Positions 8,423 through 28,122 of a stretch of DNA of 64,000 nucleotides are shown here, in pieces. The first letter of the stretch is position 1. Every line of letters starts with the position of its first letter. The position numbers and the translations under genes are program-made. Below the pieces are notes generated by a model that was not told where the DNA came from, ran no database searches, and was given only the letters and a program-made list of their open reading frames with translations. Source of the DNA: Candidatus Latescibacterota bacterium (lineage in GTDB: Bacteria > Latescibacterota > UBA2968 > UBA8231); contig OZ242005.1 in the NCBI GenBank assembly GCA_965204725.1, positions 4,608,001 through 4,672,000 of the forward strand, read 5' to 3'.

Positions 8423-8432
8423 CTCGGCAAGA

Positions 8433-10904: not shown

Positions 10905-10924
10905 GACGATGGGTTGCGGACTGA

Positions 10925-11974
10925 TTAAGGACGGGTCGCTTCCGCATTTTGCCGCCTAATGGGATATTGCGGAAGGTCGCGCTCAATTTCTCGGTCGTAG
11001 AGTTCAGTGAAGGTATCCGCAATCGCGTTGGGATGAATGTCGAGATAGTTACTTGCCGTGCGACAAGCTATCTCGCCCGTCTCGTCAAAGTATAGCGAGT
11101 GGAAGGCGACCGCATCCTCGGCTCGCGTACGGAGGTCAATCTCCTTGAGAACGACGTAGTCGTGAGTTGCTAGGAATACCTGAACGCCAGCGCGTTGCAG
11201 TTGCAGCAGGACATCAATTAGCGCACCTAACAGCTTAGGGTTCAGGTTGGTCTCAGGCTCATCCCAAAACAGTACCGAACCGTTCTGCAAAGTGCCATTT
11301 TGTATTAAAAGCCACAACAATCCCAACTTACGCATGCCCTCGGCAAGCAGGGTGAACTCCAAGGTTCCCTTTTTGTTCTTGAGAAAAAACTCCTCACTCT
11401 TGATCGTCACTTTTCCATCGATCTCTTCTTGCAAACGAGCGAGCAAACGTCTGTTCAGAGCATCCGACTTGCCGCGCAGTAACGGGATGTAAGCCCGGTC
11501 CAGAATATCCGCATAAACTTCTTCAAAGTGTATTTCGCGTTCCGAGTAAAGCGAGCGAAAGCCAGGTGCATTAGAGAGCATCTCCTTCACCGGAATATAG
11601 GTGCTTTTTAATGAAGAATCTTTCCAAGAATCAGCACCAGTTACAGAAACATAGGCGGAATTTGGTGATTTAATGCGATTGGAGAAACGGACTCCCAATC
11701 GTCGGTCGCCGCGATACACGTCCACGGATGCGACTCCCGGCTGCCGTTTGACGAGGCGTCCTAGGAAGCGGCCTGACGGAAGTAGCACCCGCATCAACTT
11801 CTCGGCGAAGTGGACGTCCGCTTTAGAAGAGTCACACGCCGCATATAGGACCTTCATCAAATGGGTCTTGCCGGTGCCGTTTGCGCCCACTAAGACGTTA
11901 ATCCCGGGGCAAAGCTCCAATTCCAAGTTCGAGAACGCAGTAAAGCGTCTCAATTGTACTTTCGTCAGAGTCAT
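10925..11974 (-). CDS. ABC/AAA_21-type ATPase (defence-associated type)
   Basis: Walker A GANGTGKT, signature LAEGMRK, Walker B LFWDEPE, H-loop ATH; no TM partner. Confidence 0.85.
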   Translation of the reverse strand: MTLTKVQLRRFTAFSNLELELCPGINVLVGANGTGKTHLMKVLYAACDSSKADVHFAEKLMRVLLPSGRFLGRLVKRQPGVASVDVYRGDRRLGVRFSNRIKSPNSAYVSVTGADSWKDSSLKSTYIPVKEMLSNAPGFRSLYSEREIHFEEVYADILDRAYIPLLRGKSDALNRRLLARLQEEIDGKVTIKSEEFFLKNKKGTLEFTLLAEGMRKLGLLWLLIQNGTLQNGSVLFWDEPETNLNPKLLGALIDVLLQLQRAGVQVFLATHDYVVLKEIDLRTRAEDAVAFHSLYFDETGEIACRTASNYLDIHPNAIADTFTELYDREIERDLPQYPIRRQNAEATRP

Positions 11975-12104
11975 AACATCCTCACTCGGCTACACGCGCC
12001 TCACATAGGCTCCCTATGGTCTTAGAGGTTGGGTGAGATTTTTGGTCCGCGTACTGTGAGTCCCCACCGCCTTGCGGTATCTCTTTTGGTTCTATGACCG
12101 CTTG

Positions 12105-12839
12105 CTACTGAAACAACTGCGTCGTCGGCTTGATCACCAAGAGGGGGACGCAGGCGCGGGCCGGTAGCGAGGCGACGAAGAGCGCGGCTTGGGCCAACTC
12201 TTCCGGTTGCAGCATGGCGGCCCGGCGTTGGGCACTGACGGGTTCGGGTCGCTGGGCCAAAATCGGCGTCTCGACCTCGCCGGGGCAAATCGCGCAGGCG
12301 CGGATGCCGGACGCGGCTTCTTCCTCGTTGATCGAGTTCGTCAGCGCTACGGCTCCGTGCTTGGAGGCCGAGTACGCGGCACCGGCTAGCTTGCTGGCCC
12401 GCAGGCCGGCGATGGACGAAATCGCGATGATGAGGCCGTCGTTTTGTCGTCGCATCCCCGGCAACACCGCCCGCACCATGTTGTACACCCCGGTGAGGTT
12501 GATGGCAATGGTTTGGTCCCAGGCCTCGGGCACCACTTCGCCGACCGAGCGCGGATTGGTGTTGATGCCGGCGTTGTTGACTAGCACATCGACGGCACCC
12601 CACTCGGCTTCAACCGCGGACGCTAGGGTTGCGACCGCGCCGCGGTCAGAGACGTCGCAGGAGTGGAGCAGGACCCGCTCGGCATCGAGGCCAGCGGCCG
12701 CGGCCGCGAGCGGCTCGACACGGCGGCCGACAAACGCCACCCGCGCTCCGGCCTCGGCAAAACCGCGCGCTATGGCCGCGCCGATCCCAGTGCCCGCGCC
12801 GGTGACTACAACCACTTTATCAGCGAGTTGCCGCATCAT
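12105..12839 (-). CDS. SDR family oxidoreductase
   Basis: [17 protein letters not shown]. Confidence 0.92.
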
Positions 12840-14295
12840 CCTGCTCCTTTTTGAGTGCCCGCAAGCGCGAGGCTTCCTCGCGTTGCTTGTAAAACGAGTC
12901 GAGGGGAAAGCAACCCGAAATCATGCCGTTGCGCGGCGCGGTCGTGCAATCGGAAAACGTGCGGCAGAGGACGCGGCGTTGCAGGTGGCCGGTTTGCAGC
13001 ACGTCGCAGGGCAGGTCGGGATAGGACAAAACCATCCGCCCCAAGCCGATAAAATCCACCATGCCCGCCCGCACGAGGGCTTGCCCCACGTGCGGCAGAT
13101 ATTCTTGCAAGTAGGAATACCCCGATCCGACGAATAGGCTGCGCGGGAAGCGCGCCTTGAGTTGGGCGACCATGGCTACTTGCCGCGCCACCCCGCACAG
13201 CGGGTCTTCCGGCGGCAGGTAGCCATCGGACGGGGGAAAGAGTGCCGGCCGCTGGATGTGCGGATTGTAATAAGGGCTGCCGCAGGACAAGTTAAACAGG
13301 TCAACCCCCAAGCTCTCCAGCAAGGCGATAAACTGCTCGGCCTCGCCTAAGTCCATCTGCCGAGGATCGTCCCGATTGACGCCAAAGCCGTACTCGTAGG
13401 GTAGGCAGTTTTGGTACGGCTCGGGCACCCCGTGCCTTTTGCCCTCGTTGGGTGCGGGCCGGAAGGGCACCAAGTCGAAAGCACTCAGCCGCACCCCAAT
13501 GCCGAGGCCGGGGGCTCGGCTGCGGATCCCCTCGATGATGGAGCGGACAAAGCGCGTACGATTTGCAAAGGAGCCGCCAAAGGGACCGGGCCGCGTAAAC
13601 GCGCTGAGAAATTCGTGCCCTAGATAGCCGTGGCAATGCTTGATATCTACAAAGTGGTAGCCCAGCTCGTGGGCGATTTGTGCGCTGTCAACGTAGCGGC
13701 TGATCAACTCCTCGATATAGGCGTCCGTCAGGAGCGGATAGTCCGCGTCGAGGCCAAATTTGCGATCTAAGATGGGGTGGTGGTAGAGGATGGCCGGGGC
13801 GGCTTGGTCCTTGCGATAGGGTCGGCAAAACCGCCCCGAATGCGTCAGTTGCAGGCCGAGGAGCAGGTCGTCGGTGGTGCCGAATCGCTCGCGGTGTGCC
13901 GACAGGAGCAGGTCGCGCAGCTCGGCCATGCCGGCGCGGTTCTCCTCGTGCGCCATGAGTTGGTTCGGATTGGCGCGGCCCTCCGGCACCACGGCAAAGG
14001 CCTCCCCGCCCCATATCAGCTTGGCCCCGCTGCGCCCGAAATTCCGCCAGCGTCGGCGCGTCAAATCGCTCGGCTGGCCGTCTTCCGTCCCGTCCCATCC
14101 TTCCATCGGCTGAATGGCAAAGCGGTTGCCGATGTGGGCACCGCCGCTACGGGCCGGTTGGGCCAATGGGGAAGTGGGAGCGCTTTCGATTTGGTCGTCG
14201 CAGGGCAGTTGTGCGCCCAACCGGGCCAGATGAGCGCGAAAGTCCGCGGCCCGCTTAAAGCTGGAGATACGCGGATAGTGCGTCTGGGTCGTCAA
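12820..14295 (-). CDS. NADH:flavin oxidoreductase (Old Yellow Enzyme family)
   Basis: [33 protein letters not shown]; start placed at TTG 14295, overlapping the lgt stop. Confidence 0.85.
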
Positions 14296-15050
14296 GGCGT
14301 CTCTCGCTCCCGGCGTTGCAGGTACAGCATCAACCCCAAGCCGAAGACCATCATGGCGATGCTGAGGAACTGGGCTTGGCTCAGGCCCCACAGCACCCGC
14401 GGATTGACCCGAATGAACTCCACCGCGAACCGCGCCAGCCCGGCGAGGATGAGATAGAAGCTGAACGACAGCCCCGCGATCGCCAAGCGGGTCCGCATTT
14501 TCCACAAGAAGGCCGCAATCCCTAAGTGCGCGAGGGTTTCGTACACCGGCGCGGGATGGACCTTTTCAAGAGTCGGCACCACCCCATTGGGATAGGCCAT
14601 GCCCCAAGGAAGGTCCGTCGGCACCCCGTAGTCGCCATCGCCGGCGAGTTGGCAGCCGATCCGCCCAACCCCATAGCCCACAGCGAGGGCAATGCCCACC
14701 GCGTCGGCGACTTGGCCCAGCGGCGCGTTGTGGCGGCGAATTTGCCACAACACGCCAGCCGCGGCGACGACGAACCCCCCGTACCAAGTCAAGCCGTAGC
14801 CGGAAAACAGCAGGTCGGATAGCTCGGCCCAACTCTCAGGCGAGGTCTCAAATAACACAAAGTAGAGCTTGGCCCCGACTAGCCCGCCGATCATGCAGGT
14901 GGTGACAATCGTCGATCCCAGCTCTTCGTGCAGCCCTTGACGCCTGAACTCGCGGTTGAGCACGTGCAGGGCCGCTAGGAAACCGAGGGCGACCATGAGG
15001 CCAAACGTGCCAATGCTAATGGGGCCGATCTCAAATAGGTAGGGGTACAT
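14292..15050 (-). CDS. lgt: Prolipoprotein diacylglyceryl transferase
   Basis: [33 protein letters not shown] motifs; multi-TM. Confidence 0.9.
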
Positions 15051-15052
15051 AG

Positions 15053-18000
15053 TCAGATATTTTTGCGGCCCAGTGCTTCGATCTGTCGCTTGAGTGCCGT
15101 GGCGATCTCGTAGTAAATCTCATAGGGACTCAACGCCTCGCCGCATTCCTTAAAAGAGGTGGTTTCGAGGGGGGGGCCAAAGAGCAAGCGCAAGGGGTGG
15201 CGCACGGGTTTGCGCGTCCCCTTGGGCAGGGCCTCGCGGGTGCCGGCAATGTGCAGGGGGACTACGGGTGCGTCGAGCTCGTACGCCAAAAGCCCCACGC
15301 CGGCCTTAAAGGGCTGTAGCTGGCCGTTGACCGAGCGCGTGCCTTCGGGAAAGACCAGCAAGGGGCGGCGCACTCCCACCAATTGCCGCGCCCGCACCAA
15401 GCCGGCGGCAAAATCGCCGGGGCCGTCCAAGGGAACGGCGTTGGCAAAGGTGTACAAAAACAGGCGCAGCTCGGAGTCGGCGAGGGAATGCTCGCTGGTT
15501 GCGATGTTGAGGTGATCCACTCGGGAGCGCACGGCCGCGTACACGCAAGCACCGTCGAGGTGGCTGGCGTGGTTGGCGGCAATCAGGTAGGGCCGATCTT
15601 GCGGCAGGTGCTCTAGACCGCCAGCCCGGAAGTCGAAAAAACGGCGGAATAGGGGGCCGCCGGTCTCCCACAGAATCTCTTGCAGCATCTTTTTGCCGGC
15701 CTCGCTCTCTGGCTCGACGCTCGGCTCGGCATGCAACACACCCGACCAGTACGCGGGCGATGGCTCGACCTCCCAGTTCACCCCGTCGCGCAAGTGAGCC
15801 TCTATCCGCGCCAAGACGCGGCGGAGCGTGTCCTGTGGGCGCAAAAGCCCCTCGACTGGGGTCCCGAGCCGCTGGCCGAGCCATGCGGCGAACTCCACGG
15901 TCATCAGCGAATCCAACAAGGTGTCGAGCGGCGCGTCGATGTGCGCGGCTACCTCCCCAGTGCTCAGGCCGGCGAGGAGGCCGATTTGACGCTGGATCGC
16001 CTGCTCCCATTCCGGCAGGGCCGTGCCCGGGCAGTCTGCGCGCTCGATGGCAGACAACAGGGCTTGGCGGTCCACCGCGCCGTCGTCCAGCCTCGGCAAG
16101 GGTCGGGTCCAAAAGTGTAGGCACTGGATCCGGTGATGGCTGGGCAAGGTGCGCGAAACCTCGTAGGAGTGCGCTTGGATGGTCGTGCGCAAGTCCTCAA
16201 CCTCCTCGGCAGCGCGGTTGAGCACTGCGACGCCGTGTAATTCTTCGCCTCCGGTGCGCGCCGAAGGCACGCCGACCACGCACAGATCGGCCACGTGTGG
16301 CAAGCCTCGGTAGAGGGCTTCGACTTCGCGGGGATAGACGTTGTGGCCGGCCCCGTTGACGATGAGGTCTTTGCTCCGCCCCGCGACGAAGAGATAGCCG
16401 TCGTCGTCGAGGTGGCCCAGATCGCCGGTGTGGAGCCAGCCGTCGCGCAACACCGCTTGGGTCAGTGCCTCTTGGGAGCAGTACCCTTCCATGACGTTGG
16501 AGCCGCGCACCAAAACCTCGCCGACGCCGCGCTCGTCCGGTGCGGCGATCCGCACTTGCTGCCCCGGCAACACCTGCCCCACGGACCGGGCCTTGCACTG
16601 CTTGGGGGTGTTGACCGCCACGACCGAGGCCGCTTCGCTCAGGCCATAGCCTTGGCAAATCGCCACGCCGAGACGCTCGTACGCGGCGATGAGGTCGTCG
16701 GACAGGGCCGCGCCGACGCTGACGACCCGCCTCAGAGCAGCTAGCCCGGCCGTGGCCTCGGCCCCGAGGCGCTCGACGCGCTCGACCAAAACGCGCAACA
16801 GGCGCGGCGCGGTCAACAGCACGGTCGTTTCCGTATCGCGCAGGGCGCGGAGCATCTCGCGGCTGTTGACAGCCTCTAAATACGTGATGGTGGCCCCGCC
16901 GAGCAGCGGCAAGAGCAAGCCCCCAGTGAATTCGAGGGCTTGGTGCAGGGGCAAGGTCGAGAGCATGCGATCGGACTCGTAGATGCGGAGCACCTCGCCT
17001 TGGGCGAGGACGTTGGAGATGAGGTTGCGATGGCTCAACACCACCCCGCGCGGCTCGACGACCGAGGTAAAGAGGATCGACGCCGTGGCCGCAGGCTCAA
17101 CCTTTGGCAGCTTCGACCGGCCCTCTCCGACGGACGCGGCAGGCTCGGGTGCGCACCCGAACGGCAGCCCGTTGCGATCGACATTGAAAAAGGCCATTTC
17201 CCGGTGGGCTGCCACGCCCTCGGGCGAGAGCTGGGAAAAGCGCTTTTCGGTTGCAATCAGCGCCCTCGCTTGGACAAAGTCGCCCAGCCGCCAGATGTCT
17301 TGCTCGCGCGTCTGCGGACCGACGGGCACGACCGCGAGCCCAAGCAGGCTGGCCGCCATGTAGGCGACGACCCACTCCGGCCCGTTGTCTCCGCACAGCA
17401 GGACCCGCGCCCCAGCCGACACCCCTTGGGCACGCCAACTGCGTGCCACGCGCTCGGCGCGGGCGAGCAACTCGTCGTAGCTGACCCGCGTCCAGCCGGA
17501 CCGACGCTCAATTTGCAGGGCCGTCCTAGCTGCGTAGCGGCCGCAGGCCCAGCGCAACAGGTCCGGGATGGTGCGGATGCTTTCCTCAATGCGCCAGCGC
17601 TGTTCTTCGCCCCCTACTTCGCCGGGGGTCGCGCTCAACGGCTCTTGGTCGTCGGCCGCCCCACCCAGCTCGTGCCGCCGGAGGCCGGGCAGGTGGGTTT
17701 TCTGATAGTATTGATACCAGTCAATCCGCCGCACATCCATGTTGAAGAGCCGCTGCTCTTCTGGGGGCAGCGACTCGTAAAGGGCCAACATGCGCTTGGT
17801 TTCATAGCGGCAATCGAGGGTCGTGTACGGGCTGAATAAGTCGGTGAAGTACTGGACGCGCTTGAGTCGCGTCTTGAGTGCGGCCAAGCGGCGTTTCTTC
17901 TGGGCCGATGCCCAGCGCTCGGGCAGATACTCGTAGAGCTTTTGCTTTATCTCCAGCGGATAGAGGTACTTCCAGTTGAAAACGCGCTGGAAGCGGGCCA

Positions 18001-19249
18001 CCGGCGGGAAGGTCCAATCCGCGAGTTCGGGCCGCGAGCCGTCCTTGTTGAGCAGGGGGTATTCCTCAAAGTAGGACTTGATGTACTTGAACATCCGGGT
18101 GTTGGGCAGTGGATTTTCTTCGCTCGTCGCCGCGTGAAAGACTTCCACGGTGGAGGCGGTGGCCTGCGCGGCCGCCGCCAGCACGGTATTGACGACGATG
18201 TCCACGGGCACCAAGTCCATGGGCGCGCCAACGGCGGCCGGGAAGTCCGGGACGATGCCCCGCCCGTAAGCCACCACCAGCGGATCGGTCACTTTGAGCC
18301 CGTGGATCCAGCCGGGGTGCGGGTCTTGGAGCGCGCCTTCGGTGACGCTGGGACGCACGATGGCCAGTGGCACTTGGCCGCGGTGCTTGACGAGCAATTG
18401 TTCGCCCATGGCCTTGGTAAAAGTGTACACGTCATTCCAGCCGTAATGGCGCGCTCGGCGCATCCCTTCCTCGACCAACTCGCGCTCGGTCCAGCGGCGA
18501 CAGCGGTCGTCGATCAGCTTTTGCAAGCGGCTGTCCGACAGCGTCCGGCGGTGGCTTTGCTCGACGATCTCGCGGCGGAATGCTTGCTGTTGCTCGGCAC
18601 TGCGCGCTTGGGCGCGGATGGCTTGGCAGGTGGCTTGCGCTTGGGCGATCTCTTCTTCGGGGACGAAAGGTTGCGAAGGGGTGCGGCCATCGATTAGGTG
18701 CTGAATCGTGCGGTCTGTCGGCAGTGTGCGCTCGGGGACGGTTCCGGTGAGGCGACCGTTGACGTACGCGGTGGATACGTGGACTAAGACGGGATTTTTG
18801 CGGCCTTCGCGGGCCAGCCGCAAAAGCTCCTGCGGGGCCAAGGTGTTGAATTGGACCGCCGAGTCGAGCGGCTCGTCAAAGGTGACGCTGGCCGCGTTGC
18901 CGATGATGAGGTCCACTTCCGCGAGCAGTTCGTCGCGGGCCGCTTCGTCTAGCCCGAGGCCGGGCTGCTGCATGTCGCAGGCGAGGGCGCGCACCTTCTG
19001 CCGCGCCGCAGCAAAGGCGGCTGGCTCTTCGCGGCGGAAGCGGTCAAAGACGACTAGCTTAAAAAGCTCGTCTAGCCGCTCCTCTACCGGCCGCGCCACT
19101 CCACCCGGACCGCGACCGGGCCGCAGCGCGAGGTACACGCGCCGCACACCGGGCAAATAGCGCAGGATCTTGGCCGTCAGCCCCTGCCCGTAAAACCCGG
19201 TGCCGCCGGTCAGCAACACGGTGCGGTCCTCGTAGAATTCTCTGATCAT
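15053..19249 (-). CDS. Multidomain fatty acyl reductase-adenylation-ACP-acyltransferase (ElbD-like)
   Basis: FAR TGGTGFYG / HVSTAYV / YTFTK; A-domain GYGLSE, TGDLG, GRSKD; ACP LDSL; PlsC NHASHLD and FPEGTRS. Confidence 0.85.
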   Translation of the reverse strand: MIREFYEDRTVLLTGGTGFYGQGLTAKILRYLPGVRRVYLALRPGRGPGGVARPVEERLDELFKLVVFDRFRREEPAAFAAARQKVRALACDMQQPGLGLDEAARDELLAEVDLIIGNAASVTFDEPLDSAVQFNTLAPQELLRLAREGRKNPVLVHVSTAYVNGRLTGTVPERTLPTDRTIQHLIDGRTPSQPFVPEEEIAQAQATCQAIRAQARSAEQQQAFRREIVEQSHRRTLSDSRLQKLIDDRCRRWTERELVEEGMRRARHYGWNDVYTFTKAMGEQLLVKHRGQVPLAIVRPSVTEGALQDPHPGWIHGLKVTDPLVVAYGRGIVPDFPAAVGAPMDLVPVDIVVNTVLAAAAQATASTVEVFHAATSEENPLPNTRMFKYIKSYFEEYPLLNKDGSRPELADWTFPPVARFQRVFNWKYLYPLEIKQKLYEYLPERWASAQKKRRLAALKTRLKRVQYFTDLFSPYTTLDCRYETKRMLALYESLPPEEQRLFNMDVRRIDWYQYYQKTHLPGLRRHELGGAADDQEPLSATPGEVGGEEQRWRIEESIRTIPDLLRWACGRYAARTALQIERRSGWTRVSYDELLARAERVARSWRAQGVSAGARVLLCGDNGPEWVVAYMAASLLGLAVVPVGPQTREQDIWRLGDFVQARALIATEKRFSQLSPEGVAAHREMAFFNVDRNGLPFGCAPEPAASVGEGRSKLPKVEPAATASILFTSVVEPRGVVLSHRNLISNVLAQGEVLRIYESDRMLSTLPLHQALEFTGGLLLPLLGGATITYLEAVNSREMLRALRDTETTVLLTAPRLLRVLVERVERLGAEATAGLAALRRVVSVGAALSDDLIAAYERLGVAICQGYGLSEAASVVAVNTPKQCKARSVGQVLPGQQVRIAAPDERGVGEVLVRGSNVMEGYCSQEALTQAVLRDGWLHTGDLGHLDDDGYLFVAGRSKDLIVNGAGHNVYPREVEALYRGLPHVADLCVVGVPSARTGGEELHGVAVLNRAAEEVEDLRTTIQAHSYEVSRTLPSHHRIQCLHFWTRPLPRLDDGAVDRQALLSAIERADCPGTALPEWEQAIQRQIGLLAGLSTGEVAAHIDAPLDTLLDSLMTVEFAAWLGQRLGTPVEGLLRPQDTLRRVLARIEAHLRDGVNWEVEPSPAYWSGVLHAEPSVEPESEAGKKMLQEILWETGGPLFRRFFDFRAGGLEHLPQDRPYLIAANHASHLDGACVYAAVRSRVDHLNIATSEHSLADSELRLFLYTFANAVPLDGPGDFAAGLVRARQLVGVRRPLLVFPEGTRSVNGQLQPFKAGVGLLAYELDAPVVPLHIAGTREALPKGTRKPVRHPLRLLFGPPLETTSFKECGEALSPYEIYYEIATALKRQIEALGRKNI

Positions 19250-19574
19250 GGCAGAAACGGAAAAGCCCCATCCCGTGCAGCGAGTGGCCCGTCAGGACAG
19301 GGCTGAAAACGTTGTAATATAGAGAGCGGGCTTACCTGCCACAAGGCGGCTCAGCGCGTGGGACGCCGAGGCTTGCGACCTTTGGCGCCGCGCTGATTCT
19401 GGGCGAGCCCTTGCTTGGTGATATAGGGGTGTTCGACCTGCTTTTCCAACTCGCGCCGCTGGTCAGCCCACTCGATGTCTCGTTTTCGCTTGGCCATGTT
19501 TTGATGTTATCTTTGATACCTTAATCCAATCTACGCAATCTACGCGCTAGGCCGCTGATAGGGCAACCCAAGCT

Positions 19575-20480
19575 ATGTCCAACCACTGGGTCTTGATAGC
19601 CAATCCAACGGCGGGCCGTGCCCGCGCCCAGCGTTTTGCCGAGCAAGCGGCCTTAGTGCTGCAAGACGCCGGGCGAGCGGTCGAGTTGCGCTACACGCGG
19701 GCCAAGGGGCACGGAACCGAGTTGGCGCAGCAGGCCGTGGCCGAGGGTGCTGAGCGGCTCGTGGTCTGCGGCGGCGATGGCACCATCCGCGAGGCCCTCG
19801 TACCCCTCGCTGGTTCGCCCACGGCCTTGGGGCTGCTGCCCTGCGGTACGTGCAACGACTTGGCCCTCGCCCTCACCGTGCCGTTGCGAGAGGAAGCGGC
19901 CATCGGCAACCTGCTGCGCGGCGAGGTGCGTGCCATAGACCTAGGACGGGCCGGCGACCGCCTTTTCGCGACCATCGCCGCGTTTGGCTTTGACGCCCAA
20001 GTCAGTCGCCGCATGGAGCGGGCCCAAGGGCCGCTGTCCGGGCGGGTCCGCTATGTCTTGGAAGCACTGCGGCACCTCGCTCGCTACCAACCCGCTCGGG
20101 TTCGCCTCAGCGGCGATTTCGGGGAAATTGAGCAAGAGGTGCTGCAAGTATCCGTCGCCAATGCGCGGAACTATGGAGGCAATTTGTGCGTTGCCCCAAA
20201 TGCCGACCTCGGCGATGGCCTCTTTGACGTCGTCGTCGTCAATGCAGTGCCGCGGCGGGCCATTCTGTCGCTGATGCTCCGCCTCTTTTGGCGAGGCCAC
20301 CTCCGCCATCCAGCGGTGCGCGTTGAGCGCACAGGCCGCCTAAGGCTGCACACCGACGAGCCGCACAGCGTATATGCGGATGGCGACTATCTAGGCCAGA
20401 CGCCACTCGCGCTGGAAATCAGCCCGGCGGCCCTGCGGGTGGTGGTGCCAAGTTCTTGTTCGCAGGGGGTGCGTTGCTGA
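19575..20480 (+). CDS. Diacylglycerol/lipid kinase family (YegS/BmrU-like)
   Basis: NPTAG, GGDGT, LPCGTCND, YGG, DGD motifs. Confidence 0.9.
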   Translation: MSNHWVLIANPTAGRARAQRFAEQAALVLQDAGRAVELRYTRAKGHGTELAQQAVAEGAERLVVCGGDGTIREALVPLAGSPTALGLLPCGTCNDLALALTVPLREEAAIGNLLRGEVRAIDLGRAGDRLFATIAAFGFDAQVSRRMERAQGPLSGRVRYVLEALRHLARYQPARVRLSGDFGEIEQEVLQVSVANARNYGGNLCVAPNADLGDGLFDVVVVNAVPRRAILSLMLRLFWRGHLRHPAVRVERTGRLRLHTDEPHSVYADGDYLGQTPLALEISPAALRVVVPSSCSQGVRC

Positions 20481-20537
20481 TATTGCCCTAAGAAGCGGAG
20501 CAGCAATCCACTAACCACTGGTATTCCACAGCATCTT

Positions 20538-21515
20538 ATGGCTACTCGCGCCCAGCAAATACGCCTCGGCATCTTCTTCTTGGTTTCGCTCGCGGTCCTC
20601 GCGCTGTTCTTCATCGTCGTCGCGGGCAGCCATCTCCTGAGCCAGCGCGACACCTATTACATCGAGTCCAACTCGCCCGTCAGCGGCCTCAACAAAGGCG
20701 CGGACGTCAAGTACTTGGGCTTCAGCATTGGCCGAGTCGAGGACATCGCAATCTCACCGGACGATCTCACCACTGTGGTGGTCGAGATTTCGGTCGAGAG
20801 GCGGCTAGCCGAAAACGCCATCCGCACCGACACGCAAGCGCGCATAGCCTCGCAGGGAATCACCGGCCTGAAGTACATTGAGCTTTTGGGGGGCAGCAAC
20901 GACGCCCCGGTCCTCGCACCGGGGGCCAAAATTGCTGCGGGCGCGACCTTTTTTAGCACCATGCAAGAGCGCGCCGAAGTGCTCAGCTCTAAGGTTGAAC
21001 AATCCATCGACAACCTAAACGCGCTGCTCAGCAGCGAAAACCAGCGCGTCCTCACCGAGCTCCTCAGCAACGCGGGCAATCTGCTCGCCACGGCCAACTC
21101 GCTGGTTGCGGACAACCGCTCCGCGCTCGACGAGACGGCCGCCAATATGGTGGCGACCAGTCGCTCGCTGGCCACGGCTAGCGAGGCGTTGGCGGCGACG
21201 GCCGATTCCCTGCACGTGTTGCTCATGGGCGCGAAGTTGCAACAGACGGTTGACGACCTGCAAGGGACGATGCACGCGGTGCGCCAACAAATGGACGGCC
21301 CGGTCCCCTTGCTCGTCGCCCGGCTGGACACCGTGATAGGCCATATTGACCGGACCTTTGTGGGCATCGATCAGACTGTGGGGGCCAGCCGGCAAAACAT
21401 CCTGCGCGCCATGCAGGAATTGGAGGAAACTTTGCAGAATATCCGCGAAACCACCGAACTCATCCGCGAGAACCCCGCGGTACTCATCCGAGGTCGCAGC
21501 GGTGCGGCCCAATAG
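20538..21515 (+). CDS. MCE/MlaD family protein with helical C-terminal stalk
   Basis: N-terminal TM, GLNKGADVKYLGFSIGRV, GITGLKYIEL, coiled coil ending NPAVLIRG. Confidence 0.88.
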   Translation: MATRAQQIRLGIFFLVSLAVLALFFIVVAGSHLLSQRDTYYIESNSPVSGLNKGADVKYLGFSIGRVEDIAISPDDLTTVVVEISVERRLAENAIRTDTQARIASQGITGLKYIELLGGSNDAPVLAPGAKIAAGATFFSTMQERAEVLSSKVEQSIDNLNALLSSENQRVLTELLSNAGNLLATANSLVADNRSALDETAANMVATSRSLATASEALAATADSLHVLLMGAKLQQTVDDLQGTMHAVRQQMDGPVPLLVARLDTVIGHIDRTFVGIDQTVGASRQNILRAMQELEETLQNIRETTELIRENPAVLIRGRSGAAQ

Positions 21516-22257
21516 CCGAGTGTGCCGCTTCGGCCAAGCCCTCGTCTTGGTCGCCGCTTTATCCGGCTGCGCCCAGTTGCTAGGCGGCGAGACCAAGTTG
21601 CCGCAAAAGCGCTATTTTAAGTTGCCTATCGAACCCTTGCGCGGCAGCGTAGAAGGTTCCGAGCGTCCATACCCTTTCCAAGTGCAGGTCAAGGGCTTTG
21701 AGGTGCCCCGAGCCTATGACCGCACCCACATCATCCGCCGCCGCGATCAGTACGAGTTGCGGCGCGACAACCTCCACCACTGGATGGAGCGCCCCGGCGA
21801 CATGATTACCGACGCGGTCAAGCAGTACTTGCGCCAAGCCGACCTCTTTACCTATGTCGGCGGGGACCGCGACTTTTTCGAGCGCCGTCCAGATTACGTG
21901 CTCAGCGGCTCGGTCAAAGCCATTGAGCTCTTCGACAGCGGCGACCTGTGGGCGGCCCATTTAGTTATGACGATGGAACTGGTGCGGCAAGCCGATGGCA
22001 AAGTTATATGGCAGGACGATTTCGACGAGGAGAAACAGGTGTTTTCTCCGGCCATGATACACACTGTGGCCGCGTTGAGCGGGATTTTGGGCCAGCGGAT
22101 GCAAAAGGCGATTGAGGTGATCGACTTCAAGTTCCTCAACAAGCAGCGGCCCGCGCCCGCCGCGCCCAGTGGGGAAACCGCCCCGGCGGCCCGAGATACG
22201 GTGCTGCAAACCGAATCCGATCACTACGAACTCATTCCGGGAAAGCTGGCCCGCTAG
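21502..22257 (+). CDS. ABC transport auxiliary (PqiC-like) lipoprotein
   Basis: Lipobox LSGC; W..RP motif; follows MCE gene; GTG start inferred. Confidence 0.75.
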   Translation: MRPNSRVCRFGQALVLVAALSGCAQLLGGETKLPQKRYFKLPIEPLRGSVEGSERPYPFQVQVKGFEVPRAYDRTHIIRRRDQYELRRDNLHHWMERPGDMITDAVKQYLRQADLFTYVGGDRDFFERRPDYVLSGSVKAIELFDSGDLWAAHLVMTMELVRQADGKVIWQDDFDEEKQVFSPAMIHTVAALSGILGQRMQKAIEVIDFKFLNKQRPAPAAPSGETAPAARDTVLQTESDHYELIPGKLAR

Positions 22258-22265
22258 GACTTGGT

Positions 22266-23768
22266 ATGTACAAGGTACTCTACATCCTGATCGCCCTGCC
22301 GTTGCTCGCCAACCCCGCCTTGGGCACCAGCTACACGTGGCTCGCCTCACCCGGGCGCGGCCAACTCGAACAGGATCCAACCCTGATTCCCAAGGGCAAG
22401 GGCTTCCTCTTTGTACCGACGATGACCGGAGCCCTCAACGAGCCGAGCTTTCTCGTCTTGCAAGGCAACAAACCTATCCGCGAAGCCGCCCCCGGCACCG
22501 GCGTGTTGCTCGCGCCCGGCACCTACGAATTATTGGTCGGCTCGGGTACGGACCTCCAGATGATGAGCCGCGCCGTGCCGGTCCGCGAGGGCATGACGAC
22601 CCTGATAAAGCCCTTCTGGGCCGGACTCATCATCAACGTCGTATCCGAAAACCGCGCCCCGCTCAATGAAGCGTACGAGCTGTACCGGGAGTCCTCGCAG
22701 GAAAACTACGGCCTCGGCTTCGGGGTCGAGGAGGAGCGAGGCGAGGCGGTCAAAACGTGGCTCCTGCCTCCGGGGGTTTACTCGGTCGTGCGAGTCGGCG
22801 ACAACGTGTCAACCACCCGCAAGTTCAGCGTCCGCCTAGAGCCGGGCGAGTTGGTCCAGCGCAATCTAGTGGTGGATACCAGCGATGACTTCATCGGCTT
22901 CTATCCCCCGGCTCAGCAGGGACTCCTCACCCAAGTAGCGGACTCGCGCTGGAAAACCTCCTTTCAGCTCAGCGGCGCGCCCCGGCTTTCTACCTCGCAG
23001 AACACCACCGGTGCCGATCGCTCAATCCTCGCGCTTTCCGCTGAGGTCATCGGCAGCAGCGTCTATAACACGGACCGCCACTACGTCAATCTGCGGCTAG
23101 ACTTTGAAGAAGGCTTCACCCGCGAGGAGGGCGACGACTTCCGCAAGTCCATCGACAAGTTCGAGGTCCGCGCCACGTACATCTACCGGCTTTCCAAGCG
23201 GGTCGGCCCCTATTTGCGCGGGGTGTTCAACACCAAGCTATTCGCCACAGAGGACCACTTTGACCAGCCTAAGTCCCTGCTGGTCCGCAAGGGCGACGAG
23301 ATCGAGCCCATGAAGGGCGTTAGCAAGTTTACGCTCTCTCCGCCCTTCAGCCCCCTCGAGCTGCGCCAAGGCATTGGCATCAACGCCCAAGTCATCAGCA
23401 GCTTTCCCCTGAACTTCGACATGCGCGTTGGTTTTGGGGCGCGTCAGAGCTATGTCACCGAGACCTTTGACCTAAACTCCTCCCGCACCATTGCCCGCAA
23501 GTTGAACGACACGGCCACCACCGGCTTGGAGGCCGTGTTGCTCCTCCGGTCGCGTTTCTCGCGCTTCCCCAGCTTGGACTCGGAGTTTGACCTCCTCATC
23601 CCAGAGACGGGCACCGACGCTTGGGAATTCAATTGGGAAAACCGCTTGCGCTTGCCGCTTAGCCGCTTCGTCAACATGGTCGTCGTCTTCGACTTTGAGC
23701 GCGAGCAGGCGGTGCAGGGGCTGCAATCTACGCAACAGGTTCTGCTGCGCCTCAACTATTTGCTATGA
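22266..23768 (+). CDS. Exported hypothetical protein, probable C-terminal outer-membrane beta-barrel
   Basis: Signal peptide; alternating amphipathic strands ending QQVLLRLNYLL; inside the Mce/Mla operon. Confidence 0.6.
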   Translation: MYKVLYILIALPLLANPALGTSYTWLASPGRGQLEQDPTLIPKGKGFLFVPTMTGALNEPSFLVLQGNKPIREAAPGTGVLLAPGTYELLVGSGTDLQMMSRAVPVREGMTTLIKPFWAGLIINVVSENRAPLNEAYELYRESSQENYGLGFGVEEERGEAVKTWLLPPGVYSVVRVGDNVSTTRKFSVRLEPGELVQRNLVVDTSDDFIGFYPPAQQGLLTQVADSRWKTSFQLSGAPRLSTSQNTTGADRSILALSAEVIGSSVYNTDRHYVNLRLDFEEGFTREEGDDFRKSIDKFEVRATYIYRLSKRVGPYLRGVFNTKLFATEDHFDQPKSLLVRKGDEIEPMKGVSKFTLSPPFSPLELRQGIGINAQVISSFPLNFDMRVGFGARQSYVTETFDLNSSRTIARKLNDTATTGLEAVLLLRSRFSRFPSLDSEFDLLIPETGTDAWEFNWENRLRLPLSRFVNMVVVFDFEREQAVQGLQSTQQVLLRLNYLL

Positions 23769-24862
23769 CTTGGGTGCAGAGCGACGAACAGGGAATCGCG
23801 CTCGGGGCCGCGCTTTCGCTACACACCATCGGCGCACTCGCTCCGCAAGTCCGCGCCCTCATCGCCGCGCATCCGCGCTCCGCGCTCCGCGCAGATTTGC
23901 GCCAAGTCGAACACCTCGACACGGCCGGGGCCATCTTCCTGCGCGGCTTGCCCGCCCTCGCCCGCTCCTTGGACAAGGAACTCCGCCTCGACGGGCTGCC
24001 CGCCCACTTGCAGCCCTTTTTCGACTTTGCCGCGCCCGTGCTGCCGCCCGCGCCGGCAAAGCCGCCCGCACCCGCCGCCCTTGAACGCCTCGGCGCGTGG
24101 GTCCGCGCTCGCGGCAACCGCGCCGCCGATTTTCTCTACCTGATGGCCGACCTGAGCGTTTTCGCGGTCGTAGCCCTGTTTCGCCGCGATCTGATTCGCC
24201 GGGGCAGCTTTGGCGAGCAAGCATACGCGATTGGTGCCCAAGCCCTGCAGATCGTCGGGCTAGTGCTCTTTCTCGTCGGCGCGGTTTCGGCGCTTCAGTC
24301 CGCGGCTCAGCTCCGCCAATTCGGGGCCGACATTTTCGTCGCCAACCTGCTGGGCATTGGGTTGACCCGCGAGTTGGGGCCGCTGATGACCGCGATCATG
24401 GTGTCGGGCCGCTCCGGTTCGGCTATTGCCGCCGAGATCGCCACGATGAAGTTCACCGAGGAATTGGACGCCCTGCAAACCATGGGCATTGACCCCCTGC
24501 GCTTTGTGGTCGTGCCCAAGCTGTGGGCCATGGTCGTCTGCATGCCGCTTTTGACGATCATGGCCAATTTTGTCGGCATCCTCGGCGGGACCTTCATCGG
24601 CTTGGTTTCGCTGGACATCCCGGTCGCTGTGTTTCTCAACCAAGTTTTCTCGGCGCTCTTTCTCAAGGATTTGCTCACCGGGCTGGTCAAAAGCGCGTCC
24701 TTTGCGTGGCTTATTGCGGTCATCTCGGTTCACCACGGCCTCCATTTCAGCGGCGGGGCCGAGGGCGTCGGCCGGGCGACTACTGCGGCGGTCGTATCGT
24801 CGCTGTTTGGCATCATCGTCCTCGACGCCTTCTGGGGCATTGTCTTCTACCTCCAATGGTGA
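23765..24862 (+). CDS. mlaE: STAS-MlaE fused ABC permease
   Basis: N-terminal STAS (HLDTAG); RELGPLMTA, GRSGSAIAAE, GVGRATT. Confidence 0.9.
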   Translation: MTWVQSDEQGIALGAALSLHTIGALAPQVRALIAAHPRSALRADLRQVEHLDTAGAIFLRGLPALARSLDKELRLDGLPAHLQPFFDFAAPVLPPAPAKPPAPAALERLGAWVRARGNRAADFLYLMADLSVFAVVALFRRDLIRRGSFGEQAYAIGAQALQIVGLVLFLVGAVSALQSAAQLRQFGADIFVANLLGIGLTRELGPLMTAIMVSGRSGSAIAAEIATMKFTEELDALQTMGIDPLRFVVVPKLWAMVVCMPLLTIMANFVGILGGTFIGLVSLDIPVAVFLNQVFSALFLKDLLTGLVKSASFAWLIAVISVHHGLHFSGGAEGVGRATTAAVVSSLFGIIVLDAFWGIVFYLQW

Positions 24863-25602
24863 CGCGCGCCATCGAAATCCAAAACCTCTGCGTGTCCTAC
24901 GGCGAAACGGCCGTCCTGCACGGGATTGACGCACACGTAGAAGAGGGGGAAATCGCCGTCGTCCTCGGTGGTAGCGGCTGCGGCAAGAGCACCTTGCTCA
25001 AGGCGGTCATCGGCTTGGTGCAACCCGCCTCGGGCCGCGTCGAAATCCTCGGCCAAGATGCGACGGCCCTCGGCGAGGAGGAGCTGGCCCTCCTGCGCAA
25101 GCGGCTGGGCGTGATGTTTCAATACGGCGCCCTGCTCAACTCGTTGACGGTGGAGCAAAACGTCGCCCTGCCCTTGGAAATGCACACGGGCCTAGAACCA
25201 GCCCTGATTGGGGAGATCGCACGCACCCGCCTCGCTTCGGTGGGCTTGGGGCACGCCGGCGAGCGCTACCCCGGCGAGCTATCGGGCGGGATGCGCAAAC
25301 GCGCCGCCCTCGCCCGGGCCATGGTCATGGACCCAGAGATTCTCTTCTGCGACGAGCCGGGCGCGGGGCTCGACCCGGTCACCGCCGCTGAGATCGATGC
25401 GCTGCTCCTCGCGCTCAACCGCGAGCTGGGCATCACCATCGCCATTGTCACCCACGAGCTACTCAGCATCGAGCGGCTCGACGGACGCCTCATCATGCTC
25501 GACCAAGGCCGCGTGGCATTTACCGGCACGGTCGCCGAGGCCAAGGGTTCGGAATATCCGGTCGTCCGCTCCTTCTTCAACCCGTCCGGTTCGGCGGAAT
25601 GA
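24856..25602 (+). CDS. mlaF: MlaF-type ABC ATPase
   Basis: GGSGCGKS, LSGGMRKR, DEPGAGLDP. Confidence 0.9.
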   Translation: MVTRAIEIQNLCVSYGETAVLHGIDAHVEEGEIAVVLGGSGCGKSTLLKAVIGLVQPASGRVEILGQDATALGEEELALLRKRLGVMFQYGALLNSLTVEQNVALPLEMHTGLEPALIGEIARTRLASVGLGHAGERYPGELSGGMRKRAALARAMVMDPEILFCDEPGAGLDPVTAAEIDALLLALNRELGITIAIVTHELLSIERLDGRLIMLDQGRVAFTGTVAEAKGSEYPVVRSFFNPSGSAE

Positions 25603-26075
25603 AAACCATTATCATCGCCGCCTTGAGCAAGAACAGGGTCATTGGCCGCGACAACGCCATCCCTTGGCGCTACCCGGCCGACCTAAAGCACTTCCGCCGC
25701 GTCACGTGGGGCCACGCGGTCGTGGCGGGCCGCAAAACCTACGAGACCTTTCAGACGCGCCCCTTGCCCCAGCGCCTCAACTTCGTCGTCACCCGCAAGC
25801 CAGACTACCCAGTCGCCAAGGGCGTGGTGGTCTGCGCGAGCTTGGCCGAGGTGTTGCAGCGCGCCCGCACTCTCGGTCGCGCAAAACTCTTCGTGCTCGG
25901 CGGCGGCCAAATCTATGAGCAAGCCCTGCCCTTAGCCGACGAAATGATCCTGACGCACCTACCTATCGAAGTTGAGGGCGACGTGTATTTCCCAGCATGG
26001 GACGAAGGGGAATGGGAGACGGTGGAAAGGCGCGGCGCAGGCGACTTGGTCTTTGCGACGTATCGCCGCCGCTGA
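25599..26075 (+). CDS. folA: Dihydrofolate reductase
   Basis: IG..N.IPW..P.DL, GRKT, RPLPQR, GGGQIY, GDVYFP. Confidence 0.93.
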   Translation: MKTIIIAALSKNRVIGRDNAIPWRYPADLKHFRRVTWGHAVVAGRKTYETFQTRPLPQRLNFVVTRKPDYPVAKGVVVCASLAEVLQRARTLGRAKLFVLGGGQIYEQALPLADEMILTHLPIEVEGDVYFPAWDEGEWETVERRGAGDLVFATYRRR

Positions 26076-26085
26076 GGATGTACGC

Positions 26086-26120
26086 AAAAAGGGCCTGCGT
26101 TTCAGCAGGCCCTCTTTCTC
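26086..26120. terminator. Bidirectional intrinsic terminator
   Basis: AAAAA-GGGCCTGC-GTTTCA-GCAGGCCC-TCTTT between convergent genes. Confidence 0.75.
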
Positions 26121-26146
26121 AATACGCGCCACCGAATTGACTCGGC

Positions 26147-26404
26147 TCACTCCACGACGACGACGTTGTTCTCGGAGCCAAATTCGTTGGGCACGACCGG
26201 GGCCTTGGGGTCGTTGCGCCATTCGCCGTCAATCTGATAGCGGTATTCGTACCGCCCCGGAGTCAGGGTGGTCCACGTCGTCCACAGGCCCTTTTTCTGC
26301 TGCCGCAACGACCGCCGTTCCCAGTTGTTAAAATCACCCAACACCGCAACGGCGTTCGCGCTGGCAACCTGCAAGCGAAAGTAAACGCGTTTTTTGCTCG
26401 TCAT
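26147..26404 (-). CDS. Small glycogen-binding (CBM48/isoamylase early-set) domain protein
   Basis: V.G.FNNW, L.PGRYEYRY.IDG.W..DP, N.FGSEN; start at ATG 26404. Confidence 0.85.
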   Translation of the reverse strand: MTSKKRVYFRLQVASANAVAVLGDFNNWERRSLRQQKKGLWTTWTTLTPGRYEYRYQIDGEWRNDPKAPVVPNEFGSENNVVVVE

Positions 26405-26541: not shown

Positions 26542-28122
26542 ATGCTCGGTGTACGCCATTCCTCGTCTCCTATTCGGTTGCGTCCCAAGCTCGTGCGTCC
26601 GGCGAGGGGCTGTCTGGTGCTGTTGCTGCTGGTGCCTGTTGGGCTTTTGGGGCAAGAGACGCGGCAGGTGACCTTGTACACACCGGATGGCTCGCAGCAG
26701 CGGCTGCTCAGTGCGCCGCTGGAGGTAGATGTGAAGCTACCCATCCCACCCCTTCCCGAGCACGATCCTGTCTCAGAAGTGATCGGCACGGGCACGGGTA
26801 CACGGCGAACAGAGATGGAGGTTGTGGTTAGTGACAGCGCGGGTGGGCAATCGACGATCAGCTATGCGCATGGAAAAATTGGGGCCTTAGCGGCGGACCC
26901 GTCGGGCAATGTGTGGGTGGCGACGTCAGCGGGTCTGAGCCGGTTCGATAGCGGGCAGTGGACGACCTTTACCCAAGCGGATGGCTTGGCGGACGACCAT
27001 ATCCACTCGGTGGTCGTGGATGGTCAGGGTCAGGTGTGGGCTGGGAGTTTGAATGGGCTTTCCCGCTTTGACGGCCAGCGCTGGACCCGCTATCGGTTTG
27101 AAGAGAGATGGGGCCGCGAGATCGCGATAGCACCGAATGGGGATATGTGGTGTACCGGCGGCCAAGATTTCCTTCTAGCACGTTTTGACGGGCAGGCTTG
27201 GTGGACCTACGACCATGCCGATATGGGGATCATCGGACTAGCACGTTTTCACTGGCAGGGTTGGTCGACCTACGACCACGCCAATATGGGGATCATCGAA
27301 AGCGAGGCGAGCTTCGATGACGTCCACGTTACCAACATTGCGGTTGATCGGTCCGGCACACTCTGGGCGGTTCTTGAGTTCTGGAAACACCTAGACTCAG
27401 GGTGGACGAGGAGATGGAACCGCCTGCTCACGTTCAATGGGACACAGTGGACGTCATACCAGTCACGCCTGTTAGACTCCCCCAAGAGGCTCCAGATGAT
27501 CTTCCCGGACAGCCAAGGTCGCGTCTGGTTGGATTGTGCGGCATTGTGTGTCACGGACGGTTCGACGTGGAAGTCCTACTATAACGAGCTCGGGATATTC
27601 TGGAATGTTTTTGAGGTGACAGAGGACGCCGAGGGCCGACTGTGGATCGTGGTAGGGAGCCACTTTGGTATGTTGGAGGGGACCACTTGGACCGGGTTCT
27701 CTTGGGAGGAGTTCCGAGTCGCTCGTGCCCCGGTCTTCGACAGTCGGGGTGATCTGTGGATTCCCTCATACGAGGGCCTGTACCGATGGCACCGTACCGA
27801 TCTACCTACGGCGATTGCATCCTCGTCTATGTCCGGTGCGCCGCATTCGTTCCACCTAGCACAGAATTATCCCAACCCCTTCAATCACGCCACGCACATC
27901 GGCTTTACCCTCCAACAGCCATCGGCGGTATCGCTGCAAGTGTTCAACACCCACGGTCAGTTGGTGGCCACCTTGGTAGAAGGCATGCGGCCGGCGGGGA
28001 CCTATCAGACAGCTTGGGACGGACGCGATGCTCACGGCCAAGTCGTCAGCAGTGGGGTGTATATTGTGCGGCTAGACGCCGAGGGTCGGCAGGCTACTCG
28101 CAAGATGCTGCTGATTCAATAA
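26542..28122 (+). CDS. Secreted Reg_prop-type beta-propeller with FlgD-Ig/T9SS-like C-terminal domain (copy 1)
   Basis: D..G.VW....GL.RFDG..W blades; QNYPNPFN...WDG.D..G..VSSGVY...KMLLIQ. Confidence 0.8.
   Translation: MLGVRHSSSPIRLRPKLVRPARGCLVLLLLVPVGLLGQETRQVTLYTPDGSQQRLLSAPLEVDVKLPIPPLPEHDPVSEVIGTGTGTRRTEMEVVVSDSAGGQSTISYAHGKIGALAADPSGNVWVATSAGLSRFDSGQWTTFTQADGLADDHIHSVVVDGQGQVWAGSLNGLSRFDGQRWTRYRFEERWGREIAIAPNGDMWCTGGQDFLLARFDGQAWWTYDHADMGIIGLARFHWQGWSTYDHANMGIIESEASFDDVHVTNIAVDRSGTLWAVLEFWKHLDSGWTRRWNRLLTFNGTQWTSYQSRLLDSPKRLQMIFPDSQGRVWLDCAALCVTDGSTWKSYYNELGIFWNVFEVTEDAEGRLWIVVGSHFGMLEGTTWTGFSWEEFRVARAPVFDSRGDLWIPSYEGLYRWHRTDLPTAIASSSMSGAPHSFHLAQNYPNPFNHATHIGFTLQQPSAVSLQVFNTHGQLVATLVEGMRPAGTYQTAWDGRDAHGQVVSSGVYIVRLDAEGRQATRKMLLIQ

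Follow-up and report, generated by a model that had tools for sequence, protein, structure and literature searches.

An ElbD-like four-domain protein encoded directly upstream of the sole lgt gene in a genome of the Gemmatimonadota

The ether-lipid operon elbA-E of Myxococcus xanthus was reported by Lorenzen et al. (2014), as described in the accessible text of PMC9131029. According to the same text, ElbD of this species is organized as an N-terminal FAR1-like domain, an acyl-CoA synthetase (ACS), an acyl carrier protein (ACP) domain and an AGPAT-like domain; its ACS activity was shown in vitro, and the four-domain protein is genetically tied to alkyl ether lipids. Homologues of ElbD with variable neighbours have been reported for Acidobacteriota, Poribacteria and Latescibacterota (accessible parts of PMC9426513 and of bioRxiv 10.64898/2026.06.23.733905), and the second of these sources places diacylglycerol (DAG) kinases next to elbD in sponge symbionts. 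Here we analyze a 64,000-nucleotide stretch of contig OZ242005.1 (positions 4,608,001 to 4,672,000, assembly GCA_965204725.1; hereafter the window), from a genome of 5.43 Mb in 2 contigs that is 94% complete. The window encodes an ElbD-like protein that shares with M. xanthus ElbD the same four-domain order in one polypeptide, and the next gene is lgt, encoding prolipoprotein diacylglyceryl transferase. We lean towards reading the locus as an envelope-lipid neighbourhood specific to one bacterial family, in which an ElbD-type enzyme would be the sole pathway-specific element among housekeeping neighbours and Lgt would not be dedicated to the pathway.

The ElbD-like protein matches the Pfam domains NAD_binding_4 and Sterile, together forming the fatty acyl reductase (FAR) part, followed by AMP-binding and Acyltransferase (Table 1). 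The carrier domain gave no Pfam match at E 1e-3; a D1113-S1114-L1115 motif is invariant in 13/13 aligned homologues and retained in 20/20 full-length proteins of the family, and its invariance between the AMP-binding and acyltransferase domains indicates that an ACP is present. Both the Rossmann motif TGGTGFYG and the Y-x-x-x-K motif of the FAR domain are intact, as are H-x4-D and F-P-E-G-T-R-S of the acyltransferase, and the FAR Rossmann and Y-x-x-x-K motifs, the ACP D-S-L, H-x4-D and F-P-E-G-T-R-S are all shared with myxobacterial ElbD. The domain order of ElbD had been assigned to this protein in a first-pass annotation of the window, and the Pfam matches, the D-S-L alignment and the description in the accessible text of PMC9131029 agree with that assignment.

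Overall identity to myxobacterial ElbD is about 30% only. An ElbD from Myxococcota (L152), encoded among HAD, Lar_N and NAD-epimerase genes, finds the window gene as its best match in the genome (2e-113, 30.5% identity over 1122 aa), and the best match is mutual. The window protein in turn matches 29 of 61 Myxococcota genomes at E <= 1e-60, mostly with both halves in a single frame of ~1500 aa. Four close pairs from the window's genus (dS 0.31-0.65) yielded ratios of nonsynonymous to synonymous substitution rates (dN/dS) of 0.11-0.12 for FAR, the most constrained of the four domains, 0.21-0.27 for the adenylation domain (A), 0.14-0.21 for ACP and 0.15-0.16 for the acyltransferase (AT). Within the genus, purifying selection thus acts on each of the four domains, and the window gene is not decaying.

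Proteins 88% identical to the ElbD-like protein carry the NCBI labels Gemmatimonadetes or Gemmatimonadota, and the window organism is a member of the Gemmatimonadota. The phylum sample comprised 151 genomes, 65 of them in the window's own family (G000 counted). A full-length ElbD-like frame (residues about 1-1390) is present in 42/65 family genomes; five of the 65 hold incomplete matches, most of them on short contigs, one holds a fragmentary match and one has no match. Among the 151 genomes, the full-length form occurs outside the family in G015 only, and sister families possess a stand-alone FAR with 36-43% identity to the window reductase. The occurrence outside myxobacteria that was stressed at first pass had already been published for the three groups named above.

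A search of genome contigs with motif patterns derived from the ElbD alignment returned 79 loci, of which three (L006-L008) are full-length ElbD relatives; the others, found with what were generic AMP-binding/Rossmann patterns, are ordinary acyl-CoA ligases and were not used. ElbD relatives of about 50% identity labelled 'Latescibacterota' or 'Handelsmanbacteria' proved unusable as evidence for spread of the operon across phyla. P0055 and P0091 (NCBI labels 'Handelsmanbacteria' and 'Latescibacterota') match the family loci L091 and L098 at 10/10 motif windows and, judging by these sequences, probably belong to the window's GTDB family. Because of this identity, the published 'Latescibacterota' ElbD matches may overlap with the window lineage.

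The arrangement of genes around ElbD is conserved throughout the family. We mapped the window proteins onto 25 family loci with ElbD identities of 42-90%, six reductase-only loci among them. The order small open reading frame (ORF), ElbD/FAR, Lgt and a flavin oxidoreductase-like protein of the old yellow enzyme (OYE) family recurs in 24/25, with Lgt and then OYE directly following ElbD/FAR also in the six reductase-only loci. A divergent Mla run is likewise found in 24/25 loci, and a lipid kinase in 18/25. A short-chain dehydrogenase/reductase (SDR) follows OYE in 8/25, all from genera g1 and g7. The position of folA is conserved, and a DUF3078-like protein inside the Mla cluster retains 43-87% identity. 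The exception is genus g3, where unrelated convergent genes follow ElbD. Recurrence in 24/25 loci over such a range of ElbD identity argues against chance juxtaposition.

Beyond the family the picture differs between partners. Neither lgt nor OYE occurs in the fetched flanks of any of 12 outside ElbD loci (Phycisphaerae, Acidobacteriota, Planctomycetota, G015 and eight Myxococcota), nor beside the stand-alone FAR at any of seven loci from sister families. Of the 12 outside loci, four have a lipid kinase close to ElbD (Phycisphaerae L006, Acidobacteriota L007, G015 L101 and Myxococcota L156). From these counts, the kinase link is a cross-lineage one and the lgt/OYE link a feature of one family; the synteny proposed in the first-pass annotation therefore holds within the family but, for lgt and OYE, not outside it.

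One could ask whether the neighbours have any functional relation at all. Their adjacency has a single origin, every neighbour is a single-copy housekeeping gene and the linkage is absent outside the family, which would fit functionally unrelated genes held together by one ancestral rearrangement that was never broken. We regard such pure inertia of gene order as decidedly unlikely. The order has survived ElbD divergence down to 42% identity and several independent 2.6 kb deletions in elbD, after which lgt immediately follows the FAR stop codon; start and stop codons overlap, and four unrelated lineages also have a lipid kinase near ElbD.

Two divergent gene runs fill positions 12105-26075, with 325 bp between elbD and the plus-strand run, and every gene named by the first-pass annotation is in place. 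Its statement that the four-domain gene ends 2 bp before lgt is correct: 2 nt separate the elbD stop codon (TGA) from the lgt ATG at 15050. The overlap it described between lgt and the OYE gene also exists, but spans 4 nt rather than about 200. The longest OYE reading frame begins at GTG 14505 and would overlap lgt by 214 nt; OYE homologues align only from residue about 55-80 of this long ORF, and, at 14295, a TTG shares the sequence TTGA with the lgt stop codon. Together these make the frame 12820-14295 (491 aa) the likely gene. The 20-nt overlap between the OYE and SDR genes was likewise confirmed. From the 2-nt spacing and the overlapping stop and start codons, the genes from the small ORF to the SDR would be predicted to form one transcription unit. 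A scan of 11800-26300 returned 0 promoter-like and 18 terminator-like sites (13.6 +/- 4.1 in shuffled sequences) and was uninformative.

Lgt of the window matches PF01790 at 160.6 bits (cut-off 24.9) over profile positions 1-240 of 240. It is the only PF01790 match in the whole genome, in agreement with tblastn, so a second housekeeping lgt, for which the first-pass annotation had left room, was not found in this 94%-complete genome. The genome also encodes one Lsp and two Lnt proteins above cut-off, and by a rough count 44 ATG-start ORFs show a signal-plus-lipobox pattern. As a sole Lgt accompanied by Lsp and Lnt, it is the general, cell-wide enzyme and not a copy dedicated to one pathway.

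Across the phylum, Lgt is present in 145/151 genomes, mostly as a single copy, and falls into two kinds. One is the window's kind, with the signature [14 protein letters not shown]; the other is the canonical kind, G/I-R-x-G-N-F-x-N-x-E, which is 27-32% identical to the window Lgt. Other families have the canonical kind as their sole copy; in the window's family, about a dozen genomes carry it as a second one. The 25 Lgts adjacent to ElbD/FAR form one clade (support 99) with a branching order that largely mirrors the FAR tree; its sister group comprises the sole Lgts of genus g19 and G015 (47-48% and 42% identity, respectively), which are unlinked to FAR/ElbD. Second, canonical Lgts (27-30% identical to the window's) were noted in G121, G122, G139, G145, G095, G107, G111, G133 and G148 (L127-L133). 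These second copies cluster with the sole Lgts of sister families, and G148 has three PF01790 matches.

The window protein is shorter (252 aa) than E. coli Lgt (5AZB/5AZC, 291 aa) and retains the equivalents of R143, R239 and E243, the last two in TM6, in both the 5azb and the 52-sequence alignments; these three residues are essential in E. coli (accessible text of PMC4728403). The signature differs from the E. coli G-R-L-G-N-F-I-N-G-E-L-W-G: the window Lgt reads G-R-I-G-C without the signature Asn, and W-Y-G-G-F in place of the canonical H-G-G-L. It thereby carries Tyr at the H103 position, Phe at Y26 and Cys at N146, and the same text reports no complementation in E. coli by H103Y or by Y26F. 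Tyr/Phe at the H103 position together with R-x-G-C is also found in the sole Lgts of G003, G006 and G009, the last of which has no FAR/ElbD match. Since the same variants occur in sole Lgts of other lineages, the motif divergence is lineage variation and not the mark of a special donor, nor does it speak against Lgt activity. We had considered the altered signature as a sign of an unusual pathway-specific paralogue; this idea was rejected, as R-x-G-C characterizes the sole Lgt in several lineages.

The OYE-like protein matches PF00724 over profile positions 4-231 of 342 and is distinguished by an insertion in the TIM barrel and a Cys-containing C-terminal tail. With regard to the H-x-x-H/N pair and the Tyr proton donor of OYE enzymes, alignment to 5nux shows H-G-Y kept and the first His shifted by one position. 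The gene is single-copy in the genome by tblastn. Across the four families that make up the class, the protein keeps 61-73% identity, and the gene occurs in 121/151 phylum genomes, with 56-93% identity within the class and family f8. At 4/4 loci of families f2 and f3 it adjoins mreC-mreB, with purC also present in three, and lipid genes are absent. Atlas places the protein, without a specific name, in an OYE subfamily of 480-495 aa from Bacteroidota and Planctomycetota. Its C-terminal region of about 60 residues contains three spaced cysteines, C-x6-C-x11-C. We take this tail to resemble, without matching, the four-Cys iron-sulfur motif of 2,4-dienoyl-CoA reductases.

The small ORF encodes the motif H-P-Y-I-T-x-Q-G-L, which lies between the divergent operons in 24/25 family loci and shows synonymous third-position changes. 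The motif occurs once in the genome and in 0/21 other loci, and the ORF has no family match in Pfam.

A number of observations weigh against a neighbourhood in which one pathway enzyme stands among housekeeping genes. FAR, Lgt and OYE stay together family-wide even after loss of the A-ACP-AT portion, which could mean that the reductase is functionally tied to Lgt/OYE. In genus g3 the small ORF, the OYE gene and the Lgt next to ElbD are missing together, and a canonical Lgt is the only kind there. Genes for ElbB, ElbC and ElbE are not at the window locus; elsewhere in the genome there are only weak, distant matches to ElbC and ElbE and none to ElbB. A literature search found no paper linking Gemmatimonadota to ElbD or glycerol ethers.

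The first two of these points would suit a dedicated pathway in which ElbD/FAR, Lgt, OYE, SDR and the small ORF cooperate. The reductase would supply alkyl or alk-1-enyl chains, OYE or the SDR would reduce an intermediate, Lgt would transfer an alkyl-acyl-glyceryl group and all lipoproteins would be ether-anchored. Also in line with it are the tight coupling (the 2-nt gap followed by the TTGA overlap), the FAR-Lgt-OYE order in 24/25 family loci, six without A-ACP-AT included, and the co-divergence of the adjacent Lgt clade with FAR; moreover, with a sole Lgt, any ether phosphatidylglycerol made would reach the window enzyme. We nevertheless consider such a pathway improbable. The same Lgt kind is the sole copy in g19 and G015 without linkage to FAR/ElbD or OYE, and R-x-G-C is present in sole Lgts without a FAR/ElbD match, as in G009. 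The OYE protein is class-wide and adjoins mreBC elsewhere, and neither lgt nor OYE accompanies ElbD at any of the 12 outside loci. In E. coli Lgt, both sn-1 ester oxygens form hydrogen bonds with the essential R143 (accessible text of PMC4728403), so that a donor with an sn-1 ether is not obviously accepted. The arrangement probably brings together housekeeping genes of the cell envelope rather than encoding a special pathway to ether-lipoproteins.

The ElbD-like protein itself supplies further points that weigh against the reading we prefer. Among the 64 family genomes that have a match, 16 contain the reductase alone (residues 1 to about 540, in a frame of 540-600 aa), and FAR is the sole ElbD part present in all 64; whatever is essential to the family needs the reductase alone. 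In a quick maximum-likelihood tree of the FAR domain, the family forms one clade (support 100), reductase-only forms branch from within full-length ones at no fewer than three places, and full-length proteins also make up the outgroups. Such nesting, with full-length outgroups, indicates repeated loss of A-ACP-AT within the family.

In the adenylation domain, motif A3 of the window protein reads T-S-V-V-E-P-R-G with a 2-residue deletion, as opposed to T-S-G-T-T-G-x-P-K-G in myxobacterial ElbD, and the A10 Lys position is occupied by Ala. The family A3 is glycine-poor (T-S-G-T-x-V-x-P-R-G or a close variant), to which the window's genus adds the 2-residue P-loop deletion. The A10 Lys is present in 0/20 full-length family proteins, being replaced by A, T, D, E or R (Arg in six). 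A canonical A3 and the A10 Lys occur together in 6/6 myxobacterial proteins. The Lys also persists in the homologue from Phycisphaerae and in G015, and the Acidobacteriota homologue L007 has the same non-canonical A3/A10. With the adenylation motifs lost, the activation step of M. xanthus ElbD may not apply here. In addition, H-x4-D of the acyltransferase is destroyed in 6/20 full-length family proteins (L093, L094, L095, L098, L099 and L100).

These features could point to a locus centred on the reductase, with FAR producing the fatty aldehydes or alcohols that go into wax esters or some other envelope lipid, no glycerol ether being made, and A-ACP-AT acting as a dispensable accessory under loss. 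The reductase-only genomes, their scattered positions in the FAR tree, the stand-alone FARs of sister families and the motifs that are degenerate throughout (adenylation) or in some proteins (acyltransferase) all speak for it, as does the absence of any PF09989 (Ger/PlsA-type) match in the genome. Against it stand purifying selection on A, ACP and AT in the four genus pairs (dN/dS 0.14-0.27), the intact ACP serine, H-x4-D and F-P-E-G-T-R-S of the window protein, and the genetic tie of the full architecture to alkyl ether lipids in M. xanthus (accessible text of PMC9131029). On balance we find this explanation rather unlikely. A search for PF10520 (CarF-type desaturase) gave no genome match, but its control was silent too, making the result uninformative.

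A separate case was noted within the window's genus. At C18:54947-59135, G126 contains the reductase part only (residues 1-536, 79% identity), then lgt and OYE directly, a form that represents a further, recent loss of A-ACP-AT.

For the reading we prefer, an envelope-lipid neighbourhood around an ElbD-type enzyme, the following course can be proposed. Judging by the domains and the published M. xanthus ElbD, a fatty acyl group would be held on the ACP (Ser1114), and its NAD(P)H-dependent reduction by the FAR domain would yield an aldehyde or alcohol. An acceptor of the glycerol-phosphate type may be acylated by the PlsC-type domain, and the predicted product, a 1-O-alkyl(acyl)glycerol-type lipid, would enter an alkyl-glycerolipid route. 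The kinase, as the best-supported partner, could re-phosphorylate alkylacyl- or diacylglycerol, and the SDR could serve as a step of the acyl/alkyl-dihydroxyacetone-phosphate-reductase type. Lgt would lipidate all lipoproteins in the ordinary way, drawing on any phosphatidylglycerol species present in the membrane; its operon position would go back to one ancestral juxtaposition followed by vertical inheritance, and would give co-expression. If the phosphatidylglycerol pool held ether species, ether-anchored lipoproteins could follow.

The lipid kinase has DAGK_cat and YegS_C domains and matches TIGR00147 (YegS/Rv2252/BmrU) at 166.4 bits, with a cut-off of 118.65. By tblastn, the kinase, MlaD, MlaE, the auxiliary lipoprotein, Lgt and OYE each have one match in the genome, and MlaD/MlaE of the cluster are the only such set. 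The STAS_2 match on the MlaE N-terminus (27.5 bits) is below cut-off. A lipid kinase with a complete Mce/Mla system had been annotated here; the kinase and MlaD, MlaE and MlaF are indeed encoded divergently from elbD, but MlaC is encoded elsewhere in the genome, outside the cluster, and MlaA was not found.

Table 1. Features of the two divergent gene runs and domains of the ElbD-like protein (window coordinates).
Feature	Position	Strand	Evidence or remark
Conserved small ORF, 48 aa	19351..19497	-	101 nt upstream of elbD, same strand; motif H-P-Y-I-T-x-Q-G-L
ElbD-like four-domain protein (FAR / AMP-binding / ACP / acyltransferase), 1398 aa	15053..19249	-	Pfam, alignment
Fatty acyl reductase domain (NAD_binding_4 + Sterile), residues 13-526	17672..19213	-	Pfam
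AMP-binding (adenylation-type) domain, residues 566-1042	16124..17554	-	Pfam, 209 bits
Acyl carrier domain, about residues 1085-1160	15770..15997	-	D-S-L with Ser1114, alignment
PlsC/AGPAT-type acyltransferase domain, residues 1209-1334	15248..15625	-	Pfam and motifs
Lgt (prolipoprotein diacylglyceryl transferase), 252 aa	14292..15050	-	PF01790
OYE-family flavin oxidoreductase-like protein, 491 aa	12820..14295	-	PF00724, PDB OYE matches
Classical SDR, 244 aa	12105..12839	-	PF00106, 189.7 bits
YegS/DAGK-family lipid kinase, 301 aa	19575..20480	+	PF00781, PF19279, TIGR00147
MlaD/MCE-domain protein, N-terminal membrane anchor	20538..21515	+	PF02470
ABC_trans_aux lipoprotein, lipobox L-S-G-C	21502..22257	+	PF03886; start GTG 21502 or GTG 21520
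Secreted DUF3078-like protein, 500 aa	22266..23768	+	weak PF11276, 28.6 bits; signal-like N-terminus
MlaE permease with N-terminal STAS (MlaB-like) extension	23765..24862	+	PF02405, 252 bits; TIGR00056 above cut-off
MlaF-like ABC ATPase	24856..25602	+	true start ATG 24856, overlapping MlaE stop
Dihydrofolate reductase (folA), final gene of plus-strand run	25599..26075	+	PF00186

Directly after the SDR lies a likely defence islet (4634-11974) with a G+C content of 0.48-0.59, compared with about 0.64 in the operon. It encodes a 1262-aa SIR2_2-domain protein (4634-8422, +), a restriction-modification enzyme of the MmeI family (8433-10904, -) and an AAA_21 ATPase (10925-11974, -); for the ATPase, no counterpart was seen in 37 related loci mapped. 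Downstream of folA, the window encodes a Reg_prop/FlgD_ig protein with Por_Secre_tail, a sorting domain of type IX secretion (26542-28122, +), and a sigma-54 activator with an fn3 domain (29849-31852, +). Seven public sequencing runs, several labelled sponge metagenome, contain at least half of the sampled 31-mers of 12105-20480, and marine-metagenome runs contain just under half; we treat this as a habitat lead only.

In soils, sediments and sponge microbiomes, ElbD homologues are used to infer from genomes whether bacteria have the potential for ether lipids. The present locus indicates that an ElbD match alone does not predict myxobacterial chemistry, because the adenylation residues expected for activity are absent in this family and in L007 and the C-terminal domains have been lost repeatedly in the family. 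The operon link between elbD and a sole lgt offers a concrete test case for ether anchors on bacterial lipoproteins. If all the genes did cooperate in a dedicated pathway that builds alkyl-ether or otherwise reduced glyceryl anchors, the whole lipoproteome would be ether-linked, and these bacteria would parallel archaea with their ether-anchored lipoproteins; this would bear on lipoprotein recognition and on the lipid-divide debate. We regard the locus as genuine and conserved, a variant of a known system that is of moderate interest, and the ether-lipoprotein idea as a long shot.

The run of Mla genes resembles the MlaFEDB system in combining an MlaD/MCE protein, an MlaE fused to an MlaB-like STAS domain and an MlaF-like ATPase in one run; unlike that system, it adds a PF03886 lipoprotein and the 500-aa DUF3078-like protein. 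The neighbours of elbD differ from those in myxobacteria, where HAD (ElbB), Lar_N (ElbC) and NAD-epimerase (ElbE) proteins are encoded, whereas the window has Lgt, OYE, SDR and the small ORF. Parallels come from the ElbD clusters of sponge symbionts and Acidobacteriota, which, as far as the accessible texts describe them, have DAG kinases and oxidoreductases among their neighbours and include split or stand-alone forms, as in the window lineage. Acidobacteriota L007 combines a non-canonical A3/A10 like that of the window protein with a kinase directly upstream. The accessible texts of PMC9426513 and bioRxiv 10.64898/2026.06.23.733905 mention no Gemmatimonadota carrier and no link to lgt or lipoproteins, with a supplementary listing possible; in its accessible part, one paper pairs Gemmatimonad* with elbD, naming the phylum in a figure legend only, and that of PMC12345273 contains nothing on ether anchors of bacterial lipoproteins. 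Set beside these systems, the new elements are Gemmatimonadota as a carrier of ElbD, an operon shared across the family that includes the sole lgt, OYE and a conserved small ORF, a non-canonical adenylation domain, and repeated truncation of the enzyme to its reductase.

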